A stretch of 64,000 bases of DNA, taken from NCBI GenBank assembly GCA_028718745.1, contig JAQULF010000003.1, positions 160-64,159 on the forward strand, in the 5' to 3' direction. Position 1 is the first letter of the stretch; each line of letters begins with the position of its first letter. The notes beneath the pieces are model-generated. The model did no database searches. It saw only the letters and a program-made list of their open reading frames with translations, and was not told the DNA's origin. This stretch comes from Patescibacteria group bacterium (GTDB lineage: Bacteria; Patescibacteriota; JACPGU01). A program made the translations under genes and the position numbers. This document shows positions 4,093 through 17,137 of this stretch, in pieces.

Positions 4093-6336
4093 ATGTTTAT
4101 AACCAAAGTTGGTAAAATCTTATCGCGCCAAAAAAATCCCGACCGCTATACTTTGGTCTCTATTTTTAAACCCGATTCGCAGCAGCAGAAAGATCACGGT
4201 ACGATCTATATGATTATCGAAATCCTCTCTTCCGACCCTACTATGGGCCGAGTGGCTAAAGTGATTGAGAAGATTTTGATTGAGAAGTATTATGAAAATT
4301 TGGAAGATGGGTTAACTAGTTTTGAAGCGACTTTGAAAATTATCAACGAGAAACTAGCCTCGCTGGCTGATGAGGGTGAAATCGGCTGGATTGGCAAAAT
4401 CAATGCCGTCATCGCAATTTTGGAAAAAAACATTTTGCATGTTACTCAAACCGGCACTACCGAAGCTTATATGGTTCGGGGAAGCACAATTACCCACATT
4501 ACCGAGAACCTTTCGTCAGCGAGTGAAAAACCAAATCCTCTAAAAACTTTTATCAACATTGCTTCCGGCGAACTTGATCTTGGGGATAAAGTTATTATTT
4601 CAACCTCGGAGCTTTTTTACCATTTCTCGCTGGATGATTTGCGAAGAATCAACGCTAAATTTCCTCCAGCCATCGCCGCTGCTTATATTGTCAAAATGTT
4701 AAGGAAAGAGGAAATTGAATCCATTAATACTTTGATTTTGGAATTGGATGAATCCGATTCTGAAACGGAAGGAAATATCGGTAAAAAGATTTTTACCCAA
4801 GGCGAGCAAAAAATAGTTGAACAATATGAGAAAAAGTTTATCCCTTTTTGGAAGTTCTTTTTGAGATTTTCCAAAAAAGGATTGGAAAGGTCTAAAGAAG
4901 TTTATGGTAATAAGGTTGTCCCGGGAATCTCCCGTTTTGCCCAGGAAGCCAATAAGAAAGTGAATGAAAAACTGGAGAAAAAAGACATTCCCCTTTTGAG
5001 GAAAAGCAAAGCGGATCGAGAACTTTTTGGTTTGGTACCGGAATTAGTAAAGTCGGCTAAAACAAACAAAGATAAAAAGTCCGAGAGGAGCGATGAGCCT
5101 GAAGTAAATCTTTTTCAATTGCAAAGAAAGACTGCTCCTTCATTCATTTCAAAGATATTTAAATTTATCGCTCGCCAGGCCAAAGAAAAAAATCAAGTTT
5201 TCATTATCGCCGGCATCCTACTTTTAGTACTATTGGCAACCTCCGGATTAATTTCTTATCAAAAAAGATCGGCTGCAGCCAAGAAAACGCAAATCGAACA
5301 GGCTTATAATTCTTTGAAAACCAAGGTGGAAAGCGCCATTAAAGCCAATGAACTGGGAGACTCCAAAAAAGCTCAATCGCTTCTGACAGAAGCGCAGAGC
5401 GATGCTGCCAATTTCCCCTCTTCTTCATATTTAAAGACCGAAGTTCTCGCTTTGGAAAAAGAAATCAATGATTCCATGGAAAAGATATTTAATATCCAGC
5501 GCTTTGATTCAACAAATTCCCTTATTAACTTTACCGCACTTGATCCGACTATTAAGCTGACTAATGTCATGAGAATTGGAAATACTGTTTATGTAATTGA
5601 CAAAGAAAGACATAAGGCCGCGACCTACAATTTGGAAGCAAAAACAACCGAATCATTGCAAAATCTTTCTTATGATGGTGTGATTGAAAAAATAGCGCTT
5701 CTAAGCGACAAATCCAGTGCGGCTTTGCTCGCTTCAGGGCCTGCTAACCTTTATATATACAATTCCAAAACCAATTCCACCCAGCAAGCTACTCAAATCG
5801 GCGGGACTGCTTGGCCGGAAGCTGTAGCCATCGCCAGCTATATGAACAATATCTACTTGCTCGCACCGAACGATAATCAGATTTTCAAATATACTTCTTT
5901 GGTCGGAAGTTATTCTACTCGCAATAATTATATTTTAGACACCATCTCCTTGGATTTGAAAGATGCGGTTGATTTGGCTATAGATGGAAGCGTCTACATT
6001 TTAATGAAAAACGGAGACGCACTGAAGTTTATTTCCGGACAAAAAATGGAATTTGGCTTTACCGGATTACCAAACAATGTTAATGCCGACCAGAAGGATC
6101 CGAATGCCAAAATGGTTAATCCGATTCGAATTATCACAAATGTCGATATGGCCAATCTTTATGTCGCTGACGCAGGCGCGAAAAGAGTCGTGGTTTTTGA
6201 TAAAGACGGCAAATACAAAACCCAATTCGTATCTAACCAATGGAATGATATGAAAGACATCGCCGTTTCATGGGAGAACAAAAAACTCTATGTGCTATCC
6301 GGAACAGAAGTATTTGAAGTAGATATTTCTAAATAA
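4093..6336 (+). CDS. Membrane protein: cytoplasmic N-domain (possible degenerate PP2C/SpoIIE-like fold), single TM, extracellular NHL/beta-propeller-like C-domain
   Basis: TM helix FIIAGILLLVLLATSGLISY mid-protein; C-terminal NLYVADAGAKRVVVFDKDGKY resembles an NHL repeat; N-domain has PP2C-like spacing (ILHVTQTGTTEAYMVRG...DLGDKVIISTSELF) but lacks the catalytic Asp residues. Confidence 0.4.
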   Translation: MFITKVGKILSRQKNPDRYTLVSIFKPDSQQQKDHGTIYMIIEILSSDPTMGRVAKVIEKILIEKYYENLEDGLTSFEATLKIINEKLASLADEGEIGWIGKINAVIAILEKNILHVTQTGTTEAYMVRGSTITHITENLSSASEKPNPLKTFINIASGELDLGDKVIISTSELFYHFSLDDLRRINAKFPPAIAAAYIVKMLRKEEIESINTLILELDESDSETEGNIGKKIFTQGEQKIVEQYEKKFIPFWKFFLRFSKKGLERSKEVYGNKVVPGISRFAQEANKKVNEKLEKKDIPLLRKSKADRELFGLVPELVKSAKTNKDKKSERSDEPEVNLFQLQRKTAPSFISKIFKFIARQAKEKNQVFIIAGILLLVLLATSGLISYQKRSAAAKKTQIEQAYNSLKTKVESAIKANELGDSKKAQSLLTEAQSDAANFPSSSYLKTEVLALEKEINDSMEKIFNIQRFDSTNSLINFTALDPTIKLTNVMRIGNTVYVIDKERHKAATYNLEAKTTESLQNLSYDGVIEKIALLSDKSSAALLASGPANLYIYNSKTNSTQQATQIGGTAWPEAVAIASYMNNIYLLAPNDNQIFKYTSLVGSYSTRNNYILDTISLDLKDAVDLAIDGSVYILMKNGDALKFISGQKMEFGFTGLPNNVNADQKDPNAKMVNPIRIITNVDMANLYVADAGAKRVVVFDKDGKYKTQFVSNQWNDMKDIAVSWENKKLYVLSGTEVFEVDISK

Positions 6337-6337
6337 A

Positions 6338-8026
6338 TTACATTTTTTCTCTCGCTTCGATTCCCATCAAAGCAAGGCAATCTTTTAAAACGACCTCGGT
6401 CGCTTTTATTATTTTAAGGCGAATAGCTTCTCTCTCATCGCCGATAATTCGGCAATTATCATAAAATTTATGAAATTCAGTCGCAATCTCATGCGCGAAA
6501 AATGGGATTTTATAAACCTGATAATTCTCACCCACTTCTTTAATTAACTCCGGGTATTGGGAAAGTTTTTTAATTAAATTAATTTCGTATTTAAAATTTT
6601 GATTTTGGAGTGACGGACGATAGTCCGTTATCTTTCCTGTGACAGACTTTCGTCTGTCATTCCGATTAATCTTCGAGAGTACGCTATGTATCCTAGCTGA
6701 CGCATACTGAACATAAAATACCGGGTTCCTCGAGCTCTGCTCTTTTGCCAAATCCAAATCTATATCAATATGATGCCCATAATCTTTTGAAATGAAAAAG
6801 TAGCGGGCTGATTCTAAACTCATCTCCTCCGCTGCTTCGCGAAGAGTGATGAAATTCCCCTTTCTCTTGCTCATCCTGACTTCCTTGCCGCCCTGCATGA
6901 GATGAACCAGTTGAAAAATGATTAAATCCAGTTTGCCTTCATGCTTTAAAATTTTTGCGACAGCTTGCAATCTCCCCACATAACCATGATGATCGGCTCC
7001 GAGAAAAATAATAATTTTACCAAATTTTCGTTGTGAGAACCTTTCATAAAGATAAGCGACATCCGACATTAAATAAGTGAAATTACCATCGGTCGTTTTT
7101 ACTACGCGATCTTTTTCGTCGCCATATTCGGAAGTTTTCAACCAATAAGCTCCTTCGTTTTCATAAACCAGATTCTTGGCTTTAAAAAAATCCCACATTT
7201 TATAAACCAGTTTCTCTTTGAAAAGGATTGATTCGGTAAACCAGCGATCAAACTTGATCCCGAGAAACTTTACATCTTTTTTTATAAATTCATCGAGAAT
7301 TATTTTCGCCGCCATCTCTCCTGTTCTCTCATAGTTTCGCCTGATCCATTCAATTCCTTTTTGCTTTTTTATTTTTCGCGCCACTACATCAATATATTCT
7401 CCGCCATAAATGTCTTCGCCTTCCACTGTTTCGATTTCTAAATCCAAATTTTTATAAACTGACTTAGCTAAAATTTTAACCTGATTTCCGGCATCATTCA
7501 CATAATACTCGCGTTTAATATTATAGCCGTTTTTTGCCAAAACATTCGAAAGCGTATCACCGGAAAATCCTCCCCTGCCGTTTCCAAGAGTTAATGGTCC
7601 GGTGGGATTGGCGGAAATGAATTCAACTTGAATTTTCTTCTCCTTGCCGGAATTATTTGAACCATACTTGCTTTTTTCTTTTAAAATGTTGCTTAATTCT
7701 TTCAAATAAACTGATGAATTTAAAAAGAAATTGACATATCCGTCGCAAGCCTCAACTTTTGCGATTTCTTTGGCGGGCGTTAAATTTAACGCCCCTACGA
7801 TTTCGCCGGCGATATCTCTTGGATTTCTTTTTAACTGTTTAGCGAGAATGAACGATATATTCGTCGCAAAATCTCCATACCCCTCCCTCTCCGGCACAGA
7901 AATATCGTATTGATCAATTTCAACTTTGAAAAGTTTTTTGACAACCTTATCGATTTGTTTGCGAAGTAATTCTTTCATGGTATTTTTATAGAGGATCCTT
8001 TCTCCACTTGTCTTTAGCAAATTCAT
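6338..8026 (-). CDS. argS: Arginine--tRNA ligase
   Basis: Class I HIGH-like region SANPTGPLTLGNGRG, Arg-tRNA synthetase core FLGADHHGYVGRL, MSKRKGN (KMSK-like), C-terminal DALR-type anticodon-binding region; contains a 23-aa in-frame insertion encoded by a REPIN-like repeat (see findings). Confidence 0.9.
   Translation of the reverse strand: MNLLKTSGERILYKNTMKELLRKQIDKVVKKLFKVEIDQYDISVPEREGYGDFATNISFILAKQLKRNPRDIAGEIVGALNLTPAKEIAKVEACDGYVNFFLNSSVYLKELSNILKEKSKYGSNNSGKEKKIQVEFISANPTGPLTLGNGRGGFSGDTLSNVLAKNGYNIKREYYVNDAGNQVKILAKSVYKNLDLEIETVEGEDIYGGEYIDVVARKIKKQKGIEWIRRNYERTGEMAAKIILDEFIKKDVKFLGIKFDRWFTESILFKEKLVYKMWDFFKAKNLVYENEGAYWLKTSEYGDEKDRVVKTTDGNFTYLMSDVAYLYERFSQRKFGKIIIFLGADHHGYVGRLQAVAKILKHEGKLDLIIFQLVHLMQGGKEVRMSKRKGNFITLREAAEEMSLESARYFFISKDYGHHIDIDLDLAKEQSSRNPVFYVQYASARIHSVLSKINRNDRRKSVTGKITDYRPSLQNQNFKYEINLIKKLSQYPELIKEVGENYQVYKIPFFAHEIATEFHKFYDNCRIIGDEREAIRLKIIKATEVVLKDCLALMGIEAREKM
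6604..6665. repeat. REPIN-like paired-hairpin palindromic element, copy 1 (inside argS coding sequence, in-frame)
   Basis: tttggagtGACGGACgataGTCCGTta ... tGACAGACtttcGTCTGTCattcc: two hairpins in inverted orientation, same family as copies at 27936, 36685, 37084 and 43165. Confidence 0.7.
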
Positions 8027-8534
8027 TTTGTATTATTACATCTGCATATATTTGGTCGCCATTCTCTATTTTTACATCTGGTCTGGAAATAAGGACATGA
8101 AGATCAACCTTAGAAAGTGGGAGACCGACTAAACTGGCCGCTTTTTGTAATTGATAATTCTCATTATCACGATATCTTTTTATTGCTCCCTCTAACTTAT
8201 CGGTTGGCATATCACCAGGGCTTGAGCCTGCCCCAAAAATCACAACGCCACCGTCTTTTATTTCATCTGGAACAGAAAAGCGCTGGAGCGAATCATAATC
8301 ACTAATCAAGTATCGAGGAATTTTTTGTTGTGAGTATTCCCTGCTCAATCTTTGGCTAAGAGTGGTTTTGCCTACATCCCAATCATGCGATGCCGGTCCC
8401 GCAATAGTAACTACAACAAAGTCTCGCTCGGCAAGAAGTGCTTCGGTTTTTTTAATTATTTGTTCTACGCCCTTTTCAAAAGGATATTCCCTCTTTTCTA
8501 CTATAGGTGTTATTTTTTCTTGAAATTCTTTCAT
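7986..8534 (-). CDS. Hypothetical protein with degenerate P-loop (possible nucleotide kinase-like)
   Basis: VVVTIAGPASHDWDVGKTTL resembles a Walker A with an insertion; overlaps the argS start by 41 nt; no confident family assignment. Confidence 0.35.
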   Translation of the reverse strand: MKEFQEKITPIVEKREYPFEKGVEQIIKKTEALLAERDFVVVTIAGPASHDWDVGKTTLSQRLSREYSQQKIPRYLISDYDSLQRFSVPDEIKDGGVVIFGAGSSPGDMPTDKLEGAIKRYRDNENYQLQKAASLVGLPLSKVDLHVLISRPDVKIENGDQIYADVIIQNEFAKDKWRKDPL

Positions 8535-12858: not shown

Positions 12859-13716
12859 TCACTTCTTTTTTTTGGTTGTGGCGGTTTTGACGGGAATCTT
12901 CACTTTAACCATAGCCAGAGTGTTGGACCATTCCTGACCGCTCATCGTTCCCATCATGTGCGGCCGTCCATTGGCATTGAGTTTGGGCGAGTTTTTGTCT
13001 GGCACATCTTCGCCATTAATATCATACCTCATGGTACCGCGAAGATATGTGCCCCCTTTTTGAACATCCACAACAGTGAGTTGTGCAATCCGCCCAAAAT
13101 GTCCCAACCTCTCACTTCCCAACCGTTTTATTCCCTTACTGCAATCGCACCGGTTCCCAGCCTTATCGACAGGCCACGATGCCATACTAGCAATACGGAT
13201 ATCACAGGCGATGAACTTGTCGCCGACTTTTACATCGACATCCGGCGGGTAAAGTTTGCAGAGCGGTGCCTCCGTGTTGGCATAAACGCAGAAAAAAATA
13301 TCCGGCGATGTTTCCATTACATAGTAATAAGGTAGATGCCGCATTCCGTTCGGAGATGGAAGCCGCGGATTATCTATGCGGCTGTAAATCGTAACGCTCT
13401 CATTTTCTCCTCCCCAGGTCTTCTGGAAATCCGCCACGATGCCGCCCCTTTTCATAAAAACGAAGGGTGCTTGGCAAACGGTTCCTTCTTTGTGTTCGTA
13501 GTATTGCGAGTATTCGCACAACACCGGCCGCTCAAATTCCTCAAAAAGCGACGGGTATTCCGGTGAGACAGCGACCATCTCCCCATTCACTTCTTCGAAG
13601 TTAAGCTGGCCGATAGCGACCGGCGGATGAAGCGTTTTGGCGGTCGAGACCGCCGGGATTGCAAACAGAGCCGACAGCACTGCCACAACGATCAAGCTGA
13701 TCTTTGCGTTTTTCAT
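12859..13716 (-). CDS. Secreted Cys-rich hypothetical protein (start re-called at MKNAKISL...)
   Basis: Signal peptide MKNAKISLIVVAVLSALFAIPAVSTA preceded by GGAGG RBS; 8 Cys; lies in GC-rich (~50%) island; the tracked ORF start at 13863 is probably an upstream extension. Confidence 0.45.
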   Translation of the reverse strand: MKNAKISLIVVAVLSALFAIPAVSTAKTLHPPVAIGQLNFEEVNGEMVAVSPEYPSLFEEFERPVLCEYSQYYEHKEGTVCQAPFVFMKRGGIVADFQKTWGGENESVTIYSRIDNPRLPSPNGMRHLPYYYVMETSPDIFFCVYANTEAPLCKLYPPDVDVKVGDKFIACDIRIASMASWPVDKAGNRCDCSKGIKRLGSERLGHFGRIAQLTVVDVQKGGTYLRGTMRYDINGEDVPDKNSPKLNANGRPHMMGTMSGQEWSNTLAMVKVKIPVKTATTKKKK

Positions 13717-13932
13717 GAGTTGACCTCTTCCTCCGGGCTCGCCGGATATTTTGTTTTGATTGGTAAGATGCTTTATCTCACGGGCGTATTGCCATACGCC
13801 CCTACAAAGTATATTTTGGCTTATTATACAAGGTTTTTTGAAAGAATGCAAGAGAGAAATCAAATAGTTATATACTAAGAAAAAAATTATAAAAACCTTA
13901 CTAAGAGTTTTTATTTATAAAAAACACCTCTA

Positions 13933-13960
13933 TTGACACAATTTTTAAAAAGAGTACTAT
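13933..13960 (+). promoter_or_regulatory. Promoter for rSAM operon (-35 TTGACA, 16-nt spacer, -10 TACTAT) in the AT-rich gap
   Basis: TTGACA 13933-13938; TACTAT 13955-13960; GGGAGG RBS 14011-14016, 7 nt before ATG 14024. Confidence 0.4.
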
Positions 13961-14023
13961 TTAATCAGTGCCATTTATTAGATGGTCGGCACATTTAAAA
14001 TCTAAACGCGAGGGAGGCCTGCG

Positions 14024-15427
14024 ATGATATTCAACTCTAGTGTTGCCTACATGAAATCGCCATTCATGCAGGTCGTCCGAGACGGAGACTTCGCTATAAT
14101 CTGGCACTCGTTGTTTGGCTATCCGCGAATTGTTCCTATCGAGACGCTCAAGTTTCTTGAATCGTTGTCGGAACCGACAATGATTCAGTCACAGCTCGGT
14201 AATGAACTAGATAAGGAAAGCCGAGAAACAATCGAGGAATTCGCGCACTGTTATTTCCTCATTCCAAAAGGTTTTAACGATCGAGCTTTCCTCGAAGAAA
14301 AGATGAGGGAAAGAGAAAAAGAAATTAGCAGTGGTTCACTGATTGACCATCTCGAGCTTATCATGAGCGAGGTGTGCAATTTTCGTTGTACCTACTGCAT
14401 CCATTTCAATAATCTGGAAACCTCCGACCGCATCAATAATCCCGAGAAATTCATGCGGTTTGAGATGGCCAAGGAGGCTGTAGATCAGTACTTCGAAATT
14501 CTCCGTGAACATGGAAAGCATACCATCGAAATCAATTTTGGCGGAGGCGAACCGCTGATGGCATGGTCGGTTATCAAGCAAGTGCTTGAATACTGCCGCG
14601 CCACCTATGGTTCGGAGTTCGAATTGCAATTCTCGATCAACACAAATGCTTCCTTTATCACGCAGGAGATCGCTGAAACTCTGAAGAAATATCGGGTTGG
14701 AATCGCTTCCAGCCTCGATGGCTTGCAGGAAGAAAATGACCGCGTTCGGCTAACAAAGTCCGGTGGCGGAACATTTTCCCAAATCCTGCTGGGATTCGAT
14801 AAGCTAGTGCAAGTGGAATACCCACTTGAAGGAATTGCCGTAACAGTAACCGAGAAGAATTTCCGCGGACTGAACGAGTCGATTGTTGACTGGGTGATAG
14901 CTCGCGGAATGAAAGACATTAGGATTGATATCGATGTTCTCGATATGGTAGAAATACCAGTTGAGGATATCGTCGCGAAACTAATGCGCATTCGGAGCTA
15001 TGCGATGAAACAAGGCATCGATGCTCCCGGTTTCTGGTCGCGGCCAGCCGAGAATCTCAATGAGTCAACGCTCGAAAGCCGCGTCGCGTTCTGCGGCGGG
15101 GTTCGCGGCAACAGCATCTGCATAGATCCATCCGGAGATATTTACGGATGCGGCTACAGCACAACTCTACTCGGGAATCTCTCGGAAATTCGATCGCTTC
15201 ATGCGCCCAACTCTGCCTACTATCGCTTCGTGAAAAGCCGTCTTACTGGAGCGATGGAGATGTGCAAGGGATGTATGATCGAGGGGCAATGCGGCGGCGG
15301 CTGCAATATCACGCAGGAATTCGTTCGAGCCACTAAAACTGCTAAAATCGAGCGGATGTGCGACCTTTACCGCCGAATGACTCAAGAAATTCTCCGAGAA
15401 CAACTGCGAGAAGCAACGGCATCATAG
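14024..15427 (+). CDS. Radical SAM / SPASM-domain peptide-modifying enzyme with N-terminal RRE-like extension
   Basis: CX3CX2C (EVCNFRCTYCIHF) at ~aa 117 after a ~115-aa N-terminal extension, GGGEPLM SAM-binding motif, C-terminal SPASM signature CKGCMIEGQCGGGC (Cx2Cx5Cx3C) plus additional Cys (CGGVRGNSIC...GCGYS). Confidence 0.8.
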   Translation: MIFNSSVAYMKSPFMQVVRDGDFAIIWHSLFGYPRIVPIETLKFLESLSEPTMIQSQLGNELDKESRETIEEFAHCYFLIPKGFNDRAFLEEKMREREKEISSGSLIDHLELIMSEVCNFRCTYCIHFNNLETSDRINNPEKFMRFEMAKEAVDQYFEILREHGKHTIEINFGGGEPLMAWSVIKQVLEYCRATYGSEFELQFSINTNASFITQEIAETLKKYRVGIASSLDGLQEENDRVRLTKSGGGTFSQILLGFDKLVQVEYPLEGIAVTVTEKNFRGLNESIVDWVIARGMKDIRIDIDVLDMVEIPVEDIVAKLMRIRSYAMKQGIDAPGFWSRPAENLNESTLESRVAFCGGVRGNSICIDPSGDIYGCGYSTTLLGNLSEIRSLHAPNSAYYRFVKSRLTGAMEMCKGCMIEGQCGGGCNITQEFVRATKTAKIERMCDLYRRMTQEILREQLREATAS

Positions 15428-15469
15428 CCAAAAATTTCCCAGGCCACAACCAGGGGGAGGTGAAAGCTA

Positions 15470-15562
15470 ATGAAAACAAAGGGACGGCCGACCCTCCAAG
15501 TCAGGAGGCTGCCGAGTCTGAAGGTGTGCAACACCTGCCGACAACAAAGCAACTGCCACTGA
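15470..15562 (+). CDS. Candidate 30-aa precursor peptide MKTKGRPTLQVRRLPSLKVCNTCRQQSNCH (three Cys in C-terminal core)
   Basis: ATG 42 nt after the rSAM stop, preceded by GGGGGAGG (15453-15460) at 9-nt spacing; same strand; followed by an intrinsic terminator; not in the ORF track (too short). Confidence 0.35.
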   Translation: MKTKGRPTLQVRRLPSLKVCNTCRQQSNCH

Positions 15563-15596
15563 TCGTGGTGGCGAACAACGATTTACCGGTCTGTAC

Positions 15597-15642
15597 GGGA
15601 CTAAGGGAAAATGCTATACTCCCCTTAGTCCTGTTTTTATTT
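15597..15642 (+). terminator. Intrinsic terminator ending the rSAM-peptide transcription unit
   Basis: GGACTAAGGG (15598-15607) / CCCTTAGTCC (15622-15631), 14-nt loop, then TGTTTTTATTT. Confidence 0.6.
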
Positions 15643-15656
15643 ACTATATTAAACTT

Positions 15657-16172
15657 ATGCCAAAGCTTTCTTTAAGAAAAACTACAAATTTTGACAAAAA
15701 ATACTTTGCCAAATGGTGGAGAGATGAAGATCTGATTAAATTAACCAGTGGCGTTTTGGAACCCATTTCTGAAAAAGAAATAGAAAAATATTTGTCCGCA
15801 ATGGTGAAAAGCCGAACTGACTATCATTTTATGATTGTTTTTGATAAAAAAGTCATTGGCCATATTGCTTTGGCCAAAAGAAGAAGTGGTTGGTATGAAA
15901 CACAAATCGTAATTGGCGAAAAAGCATATTGGGGAAAGGGACATGGCGCAAAAGCGGTTCAATCACTGCTTAAAAAGGCTAAACGATTGAGTATCTCAAA
16001 AATCTATTTGGAAGTTAGACCGGACAATCTTAGAGCGATTCGCGCTTATGAAAAATGCGGTTTCAAAAAAATAAAAACGATGTACTATCCAAAAAATAAG
16101 TATCTGCCAAAAACATTGAGAATGGAATTGAAATCGGAGCTCTTGACCCCCTCTCCCAAAGTGCTAGAATGA
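15657..16172 (+). CDS. GNAT-family N-acetyltransferase
   Basis: Acetyl-CoA binding motif region YWGKGHGAKAV, typical GNAT length; AT-rich host-like composition. Confidence 0.65.
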   Translation: MPKLSLRKTTNFDKKYFAKWWRDEDLIKLTSGVLEPISEKEIEKYLSAMVKSRTDYHFMIVFDKKVIGHIALAKRRSGWYETQIVIGEKAYWGKGHGAKAVQSLLKKAKRLSISKIYLEVRPDNLRAIRAYEKCGFKKIKTMYYPKNKYLPKTLRMELKSELLTPSPKVLE

Positions 16173-17137
16173 AAACAAATAAGAACTTTCGAGTTTTAAA
16201 TAATTTTTTTATGCGAAACAAAAATAAAAACCAATCCGGAATCGCTCTCATCACCACGATAATTTTGACTTCGATAATGTTATCTTCGATGGTTTTGATT
16301 ACCAAAGAAATGACTGATGAAGCCAGGAATTCCATTCGCATCGATAACTCCATGATCGCCTACTACGCCGCCGAAGCGGGGGTGGAAGATGCGCTGCTGG
16401 AATTTCGGTACGATCATAGCGCGGAGATATCAAAGGAAAACGATGCCAACCCAGCCATTGTTGATGTTGCCTGCACGCCGCCGGATAATTTCAACTGCAC
16501 CCCCAGAACCGTAAATCTTAGCACCAATGCACGAGATTATAATGCGAAATCTTTTAATACATCCTACTATGATGTTCTTATGTGGAACAGGGTCAAAAGC
16601 ATTTTGAACCAAAAAATTTTGCGTGACGATACGGCAGAGTTTGTGGTGCCAAATATGGTAGATAATGTTATTTTAGATTGGAGTTGGGATTCGGAAATAG
16701 ATACTCAAAACAGTGGTTTTAGGGTAGAAATAACTGTATATAATGAGGATGGAAGTATGGTACCTATAGAAAAGGATGGGAAAAAATTTACTGATCCAAG
16801 CACAAAATCGATAAAACTATATAGTTCACTTTTGGGTTCTGGTAAAAAAATAATTAGAATAAAGCCGGCTTATGTAGATAAAGGAAGTTATGACCCAATC
16901 ACAGAATCTTATTCGGAAGGAAAATCTCTTCCAAGTGGGATCACACCTTCTATAAATTTAAACATAAACCAGACACCTAATTCAAATTTTATAGCCGGCA
17001 CAATCACAAAAATTGAATCGGTTGGATATTATGGTGGGGTGGCTAGAAAAATCAGCGCTACAGTAGATCGCCCATCAGGAAATATCTTAAATATCTTTGA
17101 TTATGTTATTTATAGTGGAGGTGACCTAATAAAATAG
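16169..17137 (+). CDS. PilX-like type IV pilus minor pilin / pseudopilin
   Basis: N-terminal QSGIALITTIILTSIMLSSMVLI hydrophobic segment followed by IAYYAAEAGVEDAL matches the PilX_N pattern (QRG-aLi...AfqAAEAGl). Confidence 0.5.
   Translation: MKTNKNFRVLNNFFMRNKNKNQSGIALITTIILTSIMLSSMVLITKEMTDEARNSIRIDNSMIAYYAAEAGVEDALLEFRYDHSAEISKENDANPAIVDVACTPPDNFNCTPRTVNLSTNARDYNAKSFNTSYYDVLMWNRVKSILNQKILRDDTAEFVVPNMVDNVILDWSWDSEIDTQNSGFRVEITVYNEDGSMVPIEKDGKKFTDPSTKSIKLYSSLLGSGKKIIRIKPAYVDKGSYDPITESYSEGKSLPSGITPSINLNINQTPNSNFIAGTITKIESVGYYGGVARKISATVDRPSGNILNIFDYVIYSGGDLIK

Follow-up and report, generated by a model that had tools for sequence, protein, structure and literature searches.

The described enzymes that best match the locus reported here are radical S-adenosylmethionine (SAM) proteins with a SPASM domain, among them PapB and TigE, which act on peptides that are made by the ribosome and modified after translation (RiPPs). 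PapB needs a carboxylate next to the attacked C-H bond, a need that a C-terminal Gly, D- or beta-residue can satisfy with its own carboxylate; L-residues apart from Gly are not processed at the C-terminus (PMC12373016). In TigE, the RiPP recognition element (RRE) corresponds to residues 3-85, and the Tyr of a GYW motif ligates auxiliary cluster I, the Y339F variant being inactive (PMC10878394). Genomes are very small in the candidate phyla radiation (CPR)/Patescibacteria, whose members live attached to other microbes. Reports of biosynthetic clusters from them are few (e.g. PMC7298704), and in one survey no Patescibacteria metagenome-assembled genome (MAG) was found to contain any (PMC11613949). 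Here we analysed a stretch of 64,000 nucleotides (the window) from a Patescibacteria group bacterium (assembly GCA_028718745.1, contig JAQULF010000003.1, positions 160 to 64,159, forward strand), in which a 30-codon open reading frame (ORF) directly follows a gene for a radical SAM/SPASM enzyme. With a probability of about 0.8, we consider the product of this ORF to be a RiPP precursor, co-transcribed with the upstream enzyme gene and translated from a strong Shine-Dalgarno (SD) site of its own. The peptide represents an as yet undescribed family that falls within the established class of RRE-dependent radical SAM/SPASM RiPP systems.

The initial annotation of this region had put forward the 30-codon frame as a putative precursor gene in competition with a longer ORF in another frame. 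As it had proposed, ATG 15470 lies in the same phase as the radical SAM gene, 42 nt after its stop codon, and has an SD site at good spacing. The duplex with the anti-SD sequence was scored at -12.2 kcal/mol with a spacing of 7 nt, which places this ATG among the top 0.04% of start-like triplets on the plus strand of the window. The two rival starts scored lower, with -8.8 kcal/mol and a spacing of just 2 nt for GTG 15460, and -2.6 kcal/mol for GTG 15358. The 105-aa ORF (15358-15675) does exist in the window, and the earlier description of it as lacking a sensible combination of start and ribosome-binding site was borne out. It overlaps the 3' end of the radical SAM gene, crosses a strong terminator hairpin and overlaps the start of the next gene, at 15657.

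Comparison of related loci decided between the frames. Since the enzyme was the sole query used to collect these loci, the set is unbiased toward the peptide; it comprises 19 genome loci, with enzymes 42-80% identical. The same small ORF was found in 18 of the 19, and in 17 it stands at the same position 3' of GGAGGTGA; the sole locus without it, L019, is a disrupted fragment. Among the 18 loci the peptide frame is open in every one, frame +1 in none and frame +2, that of the 105-aa ORF, in 11, the other seven carrying stops (L001, L004, L007, L009, L010, L016, L018); no minus-strand frame is open in more than 12. The ratio of non-synonymous to synonymous polymorphism (pN/pS), calculated on the last 22 codons of 17 loci, was 0.36 for the peptide frame, 1.56 for frame +1 and 1.17 for frame +2. 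Diversity in the nine core codons rose from 0.085 and 0.134 at the first and second codon positions to 0.368 at the third. These codon-level differences between frames indicate that selection acts on the peptide frame only, and the recurrence of the ORF is far more than chance would give. The 30-codon frame is a real gene under purifying selection and is probably translated in vivo. It is practically out of the question that the real gene is instead the 105-aa frame or its 72-codon version starting at 15460, or that the region is non-coding: the comparative data refute the 105-aa frame, and an Rfam scan of positions 13000-17000 (E<=1) gave no match, so that no known RNA element accounts for the conservation.

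A further small frame was seen in many of loci L002-L012, where an out-of-frame ORF of 21-22 codons (MLCRRRS.../MPCRRRS...) overlaps the peptide gene; its start is the ATG in GGTGAATGC, 5 nt 5' of the peptide ATG. The window lacks this ORF, its frame is the one with a pN/pS of 1.56, and it is most likely a sequence by-product.

In the enzyme-seeded loci, the peptide has the consensus MQKAQQKQPRPxLKVKxLPKLKVL[C/N/A/M][T/V]C[Q/R/K]xPSNC[H/K] followed by a stop (written out, MQKAQQKQPRPTLKVKPLPKLKVLCTCQRPSNCH). The division into a leader-like part and a C-terminal core, made at first from the window alone, agrees with this family: the leader is variable, with a motif h-x-V-[KR]-x-L-P-x-[LR]-K-V kept across 73 distinct peptides, and the final nine residues are near-invariant, the core reading TC[QRK]xPSNC, then one or two residues, then the stop. 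The Cys residues had been placed at 20, 23 and 30. The first two are present, the third is residue 29 and residue 30 is His; moreover, Cys20 is peculiar to the window, most relatives having Leu there, so that the three functional Cys residues first envisaged reduce to one pair conserved across the family, Cys23 and Cys29 (C-x5-C). The window peptide also carries Gln26 in place of the conserved Pro of the core. A profile search of 1.84 billion representative proteins returned 21 clusters, all of 29-46 aa and all ending with the core plus one of the tails H, K, Q, R, A, NK, HQ or RH. Over the whole family, peptide lengths range from 24 to 46 aa. A collection of 5.8 billion clusters held 29 family members, all unnamed or hypothetical, and the exact window peptide was absent from a collection of 15 billion proteins. 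Five peptides of the family, scanned against Pfam and NCBIfam (E<=10), matched no model, and we found no description of the family in the literature on radical SAM RiPPs or ranthipeptides of Patescibacteria/CPR.

The enzyme encoded upstream of the peptide was compared with profile and structure collections. Pfam gave a Radical_SAM match and a weak SPASM match (17.4 bits, against a gathering score of 21.5). The best NCBIfam match was the PapB family (NF047865; 151.8 bits over residues 109-434, cut-off 340), followed by QhpD (106 bits, below cut-off), the nif11-like maturase TIGR04064 (106 bits, below cut-off), the SCIFF maturase TIGR03974 (101.2 bits, cut-off 425), CcpM (100 bits, below cut-off), anSME (TIGR03942; 97.7 bits, cut-off 349) and RumMC (92 bits, below cut-off). 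Among solved structures, the closest was TigE (PDB 8VPO; phmmer E 1.9e-36 over residues 12-458) and the second closest CteB (PDB 5WGG; E 4e-20). An AlphaFold2 model of the enzyme had a mean pLDDT of 74.6, low only in the cluster-binding loops; used as a Foldseek query, it gave template-modelling scores of 0.73/0.76 to TigE and 0.53-0.63 to CteB. Residues 1-103 were modelled with confidence, the N-terminal domain having three to four strands and, after them, three helices, and residues 12-105 align with the RRE region of TigE. The model and the alignments support a layout of RRE, radical SAM and SPASM domains, with an RRE-like domain at about residues 1-105 and the SAM cluster motif CNFRCTYC at about 118-125. 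This motif is present in 110 of 120 enzyme relatives. The SPASM region has Cys at 357/366/376/414/417/423/427/446, with the spacing C357-x13-G371-x4-C376, C414-x2-C417-x5-C423-x3-C427 and C446, and these Cys are invariant (25-29 homologs). In the NCBI record (MDD5731574.1, 415 aa), the enzyme starts at Met53, which removes half of the RRE domain. By our sequence comparison this start is mis-called, the start at 14024 being backed by homolog alignment and by an SD site, GAGGGAGG.

Leader and RRE vary together. In a distant subgroup, the catalytic part of the enzyme is 44-48% identical to that of the window and the RRE part only 20-27%; the leader motif LPKLKVL has changed there to KMPxxSM, and the core is still TC[QRK]xPSNCH. 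A leader that diverges with the RRE while the core stays fixed is expected of a leader-guided RiPP enzyme and is hard to explain otherwise. Together with the conservation of the peptide and its linkage to the enzyme gene described below, this co-variation supports the initial proposal of a precursor for the adjacent radical SAM enzyme. The peptide might also be made and left unmodified, as a cationic Cys/His metal- or nucleic-acid-binding factor or an enzyme helper that merely shares the operon. Such a role would agree with the C-x5-C-H ending, which could bind metal, with the strongly basic sequence and with a cassette that includes neither protease nor exporter. We hold it to be very improbable, since the enzyme carries a domain dedicated to peptide recognition, which varies together with the leader, and since its architecture and neighbours match RiPP maturases.

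In the mechanism that we favour, the basic leader (residues ~1-21, motif LxVRRLPSLKV) would be bound by the N-terminal RRE of the enzyme, and the C-terminal core TCRQQSNCH would be offered to the radical SAM active site, where hydrogen would be abstracted from the core. The most likely modification, by analogy with related enzymes, would be one or two intramolecular thioether cross-links from the two conserved residues Cys23 and Cys29, and its outcome a small constrained knot at the C-terminus of a cationic peptide. This proposal follows from two observations: the nearest profile neighbours are mostly Cys-directed, and the two Cys are the only invariant reactive side chains of the core. Of the top NCBIfam neighbours other than TIGR04064, PapB, QhpD, SCIFF/CteB, CcpM and RumMC are thioether-forming enzymes, and anSME is an oxidase of Cys. 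The Asn, Thr, Gln and Ser residues named in the initial annotation are plausible acceptors, and we consider Thr22, Ser27, Asn28 and the C-terminal residue as candidates. The C-terminus provides the sole carboxylate of the window core, Asp and Glu being absent from it and from the core of the family consensus; isolated relatives have one such residue, at a variable position. The strict C-terminal placement of the core makes a carboxylate-guided reaction worth considering.

The same precursor and enzyme could be engaged in another chemistry (anSME-like formation of formylglycine from a Cys, TigE-like C-C cross-linking or cyclopropanation, epimerisation, or a reaction at the C-terminus dependent on the free carboxylate, which lies one or two residues past Cys29), a possibility of real weight that we nevertheless judge the less probable one. 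TigE, which forms C-C bonds, is the best match among solved structures both in sequence and in fold, and anSME models reach 98 bits. The stop codon always falls one or two residues past the second Cys, and PapB uses a C-terminal carboxylate as a recognition handle (PMC12373016). In addition, radical SAM function is unpredictable at ~20-25% identity (PMC10288494). As to cyclopropanation, the position of the TigE GYW motif, with its essential Tyr, reads GFW in the window enzyme and in at least 97 of 120 relatives, so that by this criterion the enzyme is not a cyclopropyl synthase, and the core is devoid of a Val/Ile repeat. Substrates of anSME carry the sulfatase motif C-x-P/A-x-R, which is absent from the core. 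The last residue varies (H, K, Q, R, A), which makes a His-specific reaction unlikely. An open coordination site on auxiliary cluster I, considered from the GFW sequence, was withdrawn because the fourth ligand could be the invariant extra Cys366, as is the case in anSME. Thioether formation at Cys23 and Cys29 remains the chemistry that we prefer.

A second set of loci was collected from metagenomes with a hand-made degenerate DNA pattern for T-C-x-x-P-S-N-C-H-stop, which returned 103 stretches, many of them from groundwater assemblies. Upstream genes were counted in the 72 loci with at least 1.5 kb of 5' sequence, and downstream genes in the 83 loci with at least 700 nt of 3' sequence. A homolog of the enzyme (38-81% identity) ends just 5' of the peptide gene on the same strand in 65 of the former, and directly 3' of the peptide 76 of the latter have either a GNAT gene (33) or a Pol-beta-type nucleotidyltransferase (NTase) gene (43). 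The enzyme-seeded genome loci gave the same picture, with a GNAT or NTase companion in 18 of the 19, the disrupted L019 alone lacking it. Companion GNATs are 50-73% identical between loci, and the relatives of the window GNAT in the PDB are AAC(6') and diamine acetyltransferases. At L031, a GNAT gene stands 5' of an NTase remnant without its catalytic N-terminal 115 residues, and at L012 and L026 a GNAT gene is likewise followed by an NTase fragment, which at L026 reaches the contig end. This suggests that GNAT and NTase are interchangeable, through gene replacement at one site. The companion genes have 31-37% GC and are far more AT-rich than the accompanying radical SAM-peptide unit.

In the last step of the proposed mechanism, the downstream GNAT, or the NTase in other genomes, would acetylate or nucleotidylate the product, for self-protection or as tailoring. 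We suggest these roles because the companions resemble antibiotic-modifying enzymes, interchange with one another and seem to have their own promoter; they are the weakest link of the proposal.

Some loci depart from the common order. The enzyme gene is frameshifted at L090, and only a remnant of it is left at L098. L015 and L071 are rearranged: the NTase gene comes straight after the radical SAM gene, and the peptide gene lies beyond, convergent on the opposite strand (in L015 at 7284-7310, minus). L069 has the peptide and GNAT genes alone. In L073 and L074, these two genes stand beside unrelated radical SAM/SPASM genes (6194-7684, minus, and 6702-8141, plus, respectively), which match best the MftC, AhbD, NirJ, AlbA and StsB-like models and are ~24% identical to the window enzyme or have no detectable similarity to it; this arrangement could reflect either an alternative maturase or a clustering of several RiPP cassettes.

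Between the peptide and its companion gene lies an intrinsic terminator with a 13-bp stem (-21.2 kcal/mol, z -4.7; none of 200 shuffles was as stable). Across loci, the median distance from the peptide stop to the hairpin is 13 nt, the hairpin arms vary in sequence yet remain complementary, and a T-run follows in 64 of 90 loci. In the window the hairpin begins 32 nt after the stop. At the position of the loop, 45 of 93 distinct loci have a motif TGnTAnA[ACT]T, where 3.5 were expected from shuffles. It reads TGCTATACT in the window (loop 15608-15621) and TGATATACT, TGTTATACT or TGTTATAAT elsewhere, and occurs at the same position in L002-L012, L020-L077 and others. In most loci the ATG of the next gene, which has no SD site, is found 18-25 nt 3' of the motif. 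The terminator would, to judge from this arrangement, carry a built-in candidate promoter for the downstream GNAT or NTase gene. A reading of the hairpin as integron attC-like was dropped, as its arms by eye are unlike the attC consensus; an integrase was not searched for.

The position of the hairpin also bears on a regulatory explanation, in which the small ORF encodes a leader peptide and a ribosome at its C-terminal codons controls the hairpin, and with it GNAT/NTase expression, by translation attenuation. The short median distance from stop to hairpin, the resemblance of the downstream genes to antibiotic-modifying enzymes and the few loci where the peptide stays with GNAT in the absence of the radical SAM gene would suit such control. 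In the window, however, the 32-nt distance puts the hairpin out of reach of a terminating ribosome; the extended -10 motif suggests that the downstream gene has its own promoter; and the peptide and NTase genes occupy opposite strands in L015 and L071. No alternative anti-terminator pairing was seen, though none was sought. Attenuation would further leave unexplained both the linkage to an RRE-bearing maturase and the co-variation of leader and RRE, and we give it very little credence compared with a precursor function. The coordinates of all features are collected in Table 1.

Table 1. Features of the precursor peptide locus, in window coordinates.
Feature	Positions	Strand	Remarks
Sigma-70-like promoter candidate of the radical SAM-peptide operon, TTGACA-16-TACTAT	13933-13960	+	consensus scan, 10/12 matches
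Radical SAM/SPASM peptide maturase gene, 467 aa	14024-15427	+	stop TAG 15425-15427
Shine-Dalgarno site GGGGGAGGTGA of the peptide gene	15453-15463	+	anti-SD duplex dG -12.2 kcal/mol
30-codon putative precursor ORF, product MKTKGRPTLQVRRLPSLKVCNTCRQQSNCH	15470-15562	+	ATG 15470, TGA 15560-15562
Predicted leader, residues 1-21, MKTKGRPTLQVRRLPSLKVCN	15470-15532	+	family leader motif present
Predicted core, residues 22-30, TCRQQSNCH, plus stop codon	15533-15562	+	near-invariant in relatives
Intrinsic terminator: stem 15595-15607 / 15622-15634, 14-nt loop, U-run 15635-15645	15595-15645	+	
Extended -10-like motif TGCTATACT in terminator loop, candidate GNAT promoter	15612-15620	+	
GNAT N-acetyltransferase gene, 171 aa, Acetyltransf_3/RimI/AAC(6')-like	15657-16172	+	Pfam and NCBIfam matches

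The TAG at which the radical SAM gene of the window ends lies 12 codons short of the end in most relatives (479 aa), and the 12 lost tail codons are still recognisable in frame 3' of it; the gene also ends early in L013, at a TAA. In most relatives, its stop is a TGA within the SD site of the peptide gene (GGAGGTGA), and this position suggests translational coupling. TigE's C-terminal tail fills the groove of its RRE (PMC10878394); by comparison, the tail seen in these relatives may be regulatory. Upstream of the enzyme gene, the spacer that holds the candidate promoter has 25% GC. A short hairpin (13968-13992) was noticed between the promoter-like site and the SD site of the radical SAM gene, and the same hairpin is found ~30-60 nt 5' of the radical SAM start in L002, L004, L006 and L008. 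Several relatives have the sequence AGAAACTCATGGTGAGTTTCT and the window has GTGCCAT...ATGGTCGGCAC, followed by a conserved AGTACATT/GCACATT. In the window this hairpin folds no better than shuffles (z -1.0); it may be a regulatory element of the 5' untranslated region.

The radical SAM-peptide unit has 48-54% GC in most loci, with flanks of 37-50%; in the window, the cassette (14024-15562) has 48.8% GC and the remainder 38.6%. Both genes of the unit have strong GGAGG SD sites, and the two other genes of the window that were tested, for PBP1A (10193) and for GNAT (15657), have none. Enzymes ~75% identical are found in MAGs whose labels name different candidate phyla of the CPR and, in a few cases, non-CPR taxa. 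The labels of the fetched loci include Ryan-, Brenner-, Magasanikii- and Saccharibacteria, and named homologs of the enzyme come also from Uhr-, Peregrini- and Portnoybacteria. The conserved DNA begins ~60-100 nt 5' of the enzyme gene and takes in the terminator. From these comparisons, the unit of radical SAM gene, peptide gene, terminator and GNAT or NTase gene is a horizontally spread cassette in CPR/Patescibacteria. The spread would be recent, since the cassette has retained a base composition and ribosome-binding sites distinct to it, and it therefore points to a selectable function. A repeat search around the cassette gave AT-rich chance matches only, with no terminal repeats or target duplications seen. 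Viral contigs held neither a relative of the enzyme (searched with window-derived patterns) nor a core-motif match, and there is thus no sign of phage carriage. PADLOC returned only generic matches, to a radical SAM protein (viperin) and a minimal NTase, so that the cassette is not a known defence system. One locus, L014 (DATATE010000211.1, 128 kb, flanks of ~60% GC, labelled Pseudonocardiaceae), has the cassette in a high-GC non-CPR contig, with an enzyme 67% identical, the peptide MDAKVTPRKRPLIQVKPFPQVKVLATCQRPSNCH and an NTase gene downstream; some other loci are labelled Omnitrophica or Gammaproteobacteria. These non-CPR labels reflect either cross-phylum transfers or mis-binned contigs.

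Several points weigh against the interpretation of the peptide as a RiPP precursor cross-linked by the adjacent enzyme. The enzyme reaches no family cut-off (PapB, 152 against 340 bits; SCIFF maturase, 101 against 425), the solved structure nearest to it is that of a cyclopropyl synthase, which makes C-C bonds and not thioethers, and the core is without the Asp or Glu that PapB requires as acceptor. A few loci keep peptide and GNAT without this radical SAM gene or beside an unrelated one (L069, L073, L074), and neither a protease nor an exporter is conserved in the cassette. Finally, the window copy is atypical, with Gln in place of the core Pro and an enzyme without the last 12 residues of its relatives.

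A bolder proposal would make the family a new structural class, in which a C-x5-C core at the extreme C-terminus is joined to acceptors other than Asp or Glu, possibly directed by the free C-terminal carboxylate, as PapB is able to do in vitro, to give a toxin or signal of episymbiotic CPR bacteria, with GNAT and NTase as alternative immunity enzymes that inactivate it and the whole as a horizontally mobile module. We regard it as speculative and rather unlikely as a whole. If true, bacteria believed to be nearly devoid of secondary metabolism would possess a module of toxin and immunity. A compact two-gene cassette for peptide modification recurs with a group-transfer companion in more than 100 loci, and its peptide gene has been overlooked by public annotation, in which only a few dozen relatives are called. 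One enzyme and a peptide of 30-34 aa are small enough for direct reconstitution, and the cassette could bring to light a new type of cross-link or a new way in which CPR cells interact with their hosts.

Compared with known systems, the new enzyme resembles anSME in being a SPASM protein that would act on Cys in a short Pro-containing motif, and in having an extra Cys between the first SPASM Cys residues, like Cys366 of the window enzyme. However, anSME has no RRE, and its substrates are whole sulfatases with C/S-x-P/A-x-R, whereas the new core reads C-[QRK]-x-P-S. The cyclopropylglycine synthases TigE and TvgB are close in structure, TigE being the nearest solved one over its full length, RRE included; they differ by the Tyr of their defining GYW motif, which is Phe (GFW) in the new enzyme, and by substrates with TIGSVS/TVGG-type repeats, containing Val or Ile, where the new family has a single C-terminal core and no such repeat. 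The SCIFF system (CteA/CteB, TIGR03974) shares the minimal pairing of a peptide with a radical SAM/SPASM-RRE enzyme, the lack of a dedicated protease or exporter and conservation across a lineage, and CteB is the second-best structural match of the enzyme. SCIFF peptides have six Cys in ~45 residues, against two conserved Cys in ~30-34 residues here, and their lineage is the Clostridia rather than CPR; a GNAT or NTase companion is not known from SCIFF loci. The ranthipeptide pair PapA/PapB (freyrasin) is similar in that an RRE-radical SAM-SPASM enzyme stands beside a short Cys-containing precursor, and the PapB family is the best NCBIfam match of the catalytic domain. The window enzyme nevertheless scores far under the cut-off of that family, and PapA has six C-x3-D motifs where the new core, with its two Cys, is without Asp or Glu. 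The reliance of PapB on a carboxylate, the C-terminal one included (PMC12373016), is paralleled by the C-terminal position of the core in the new family.

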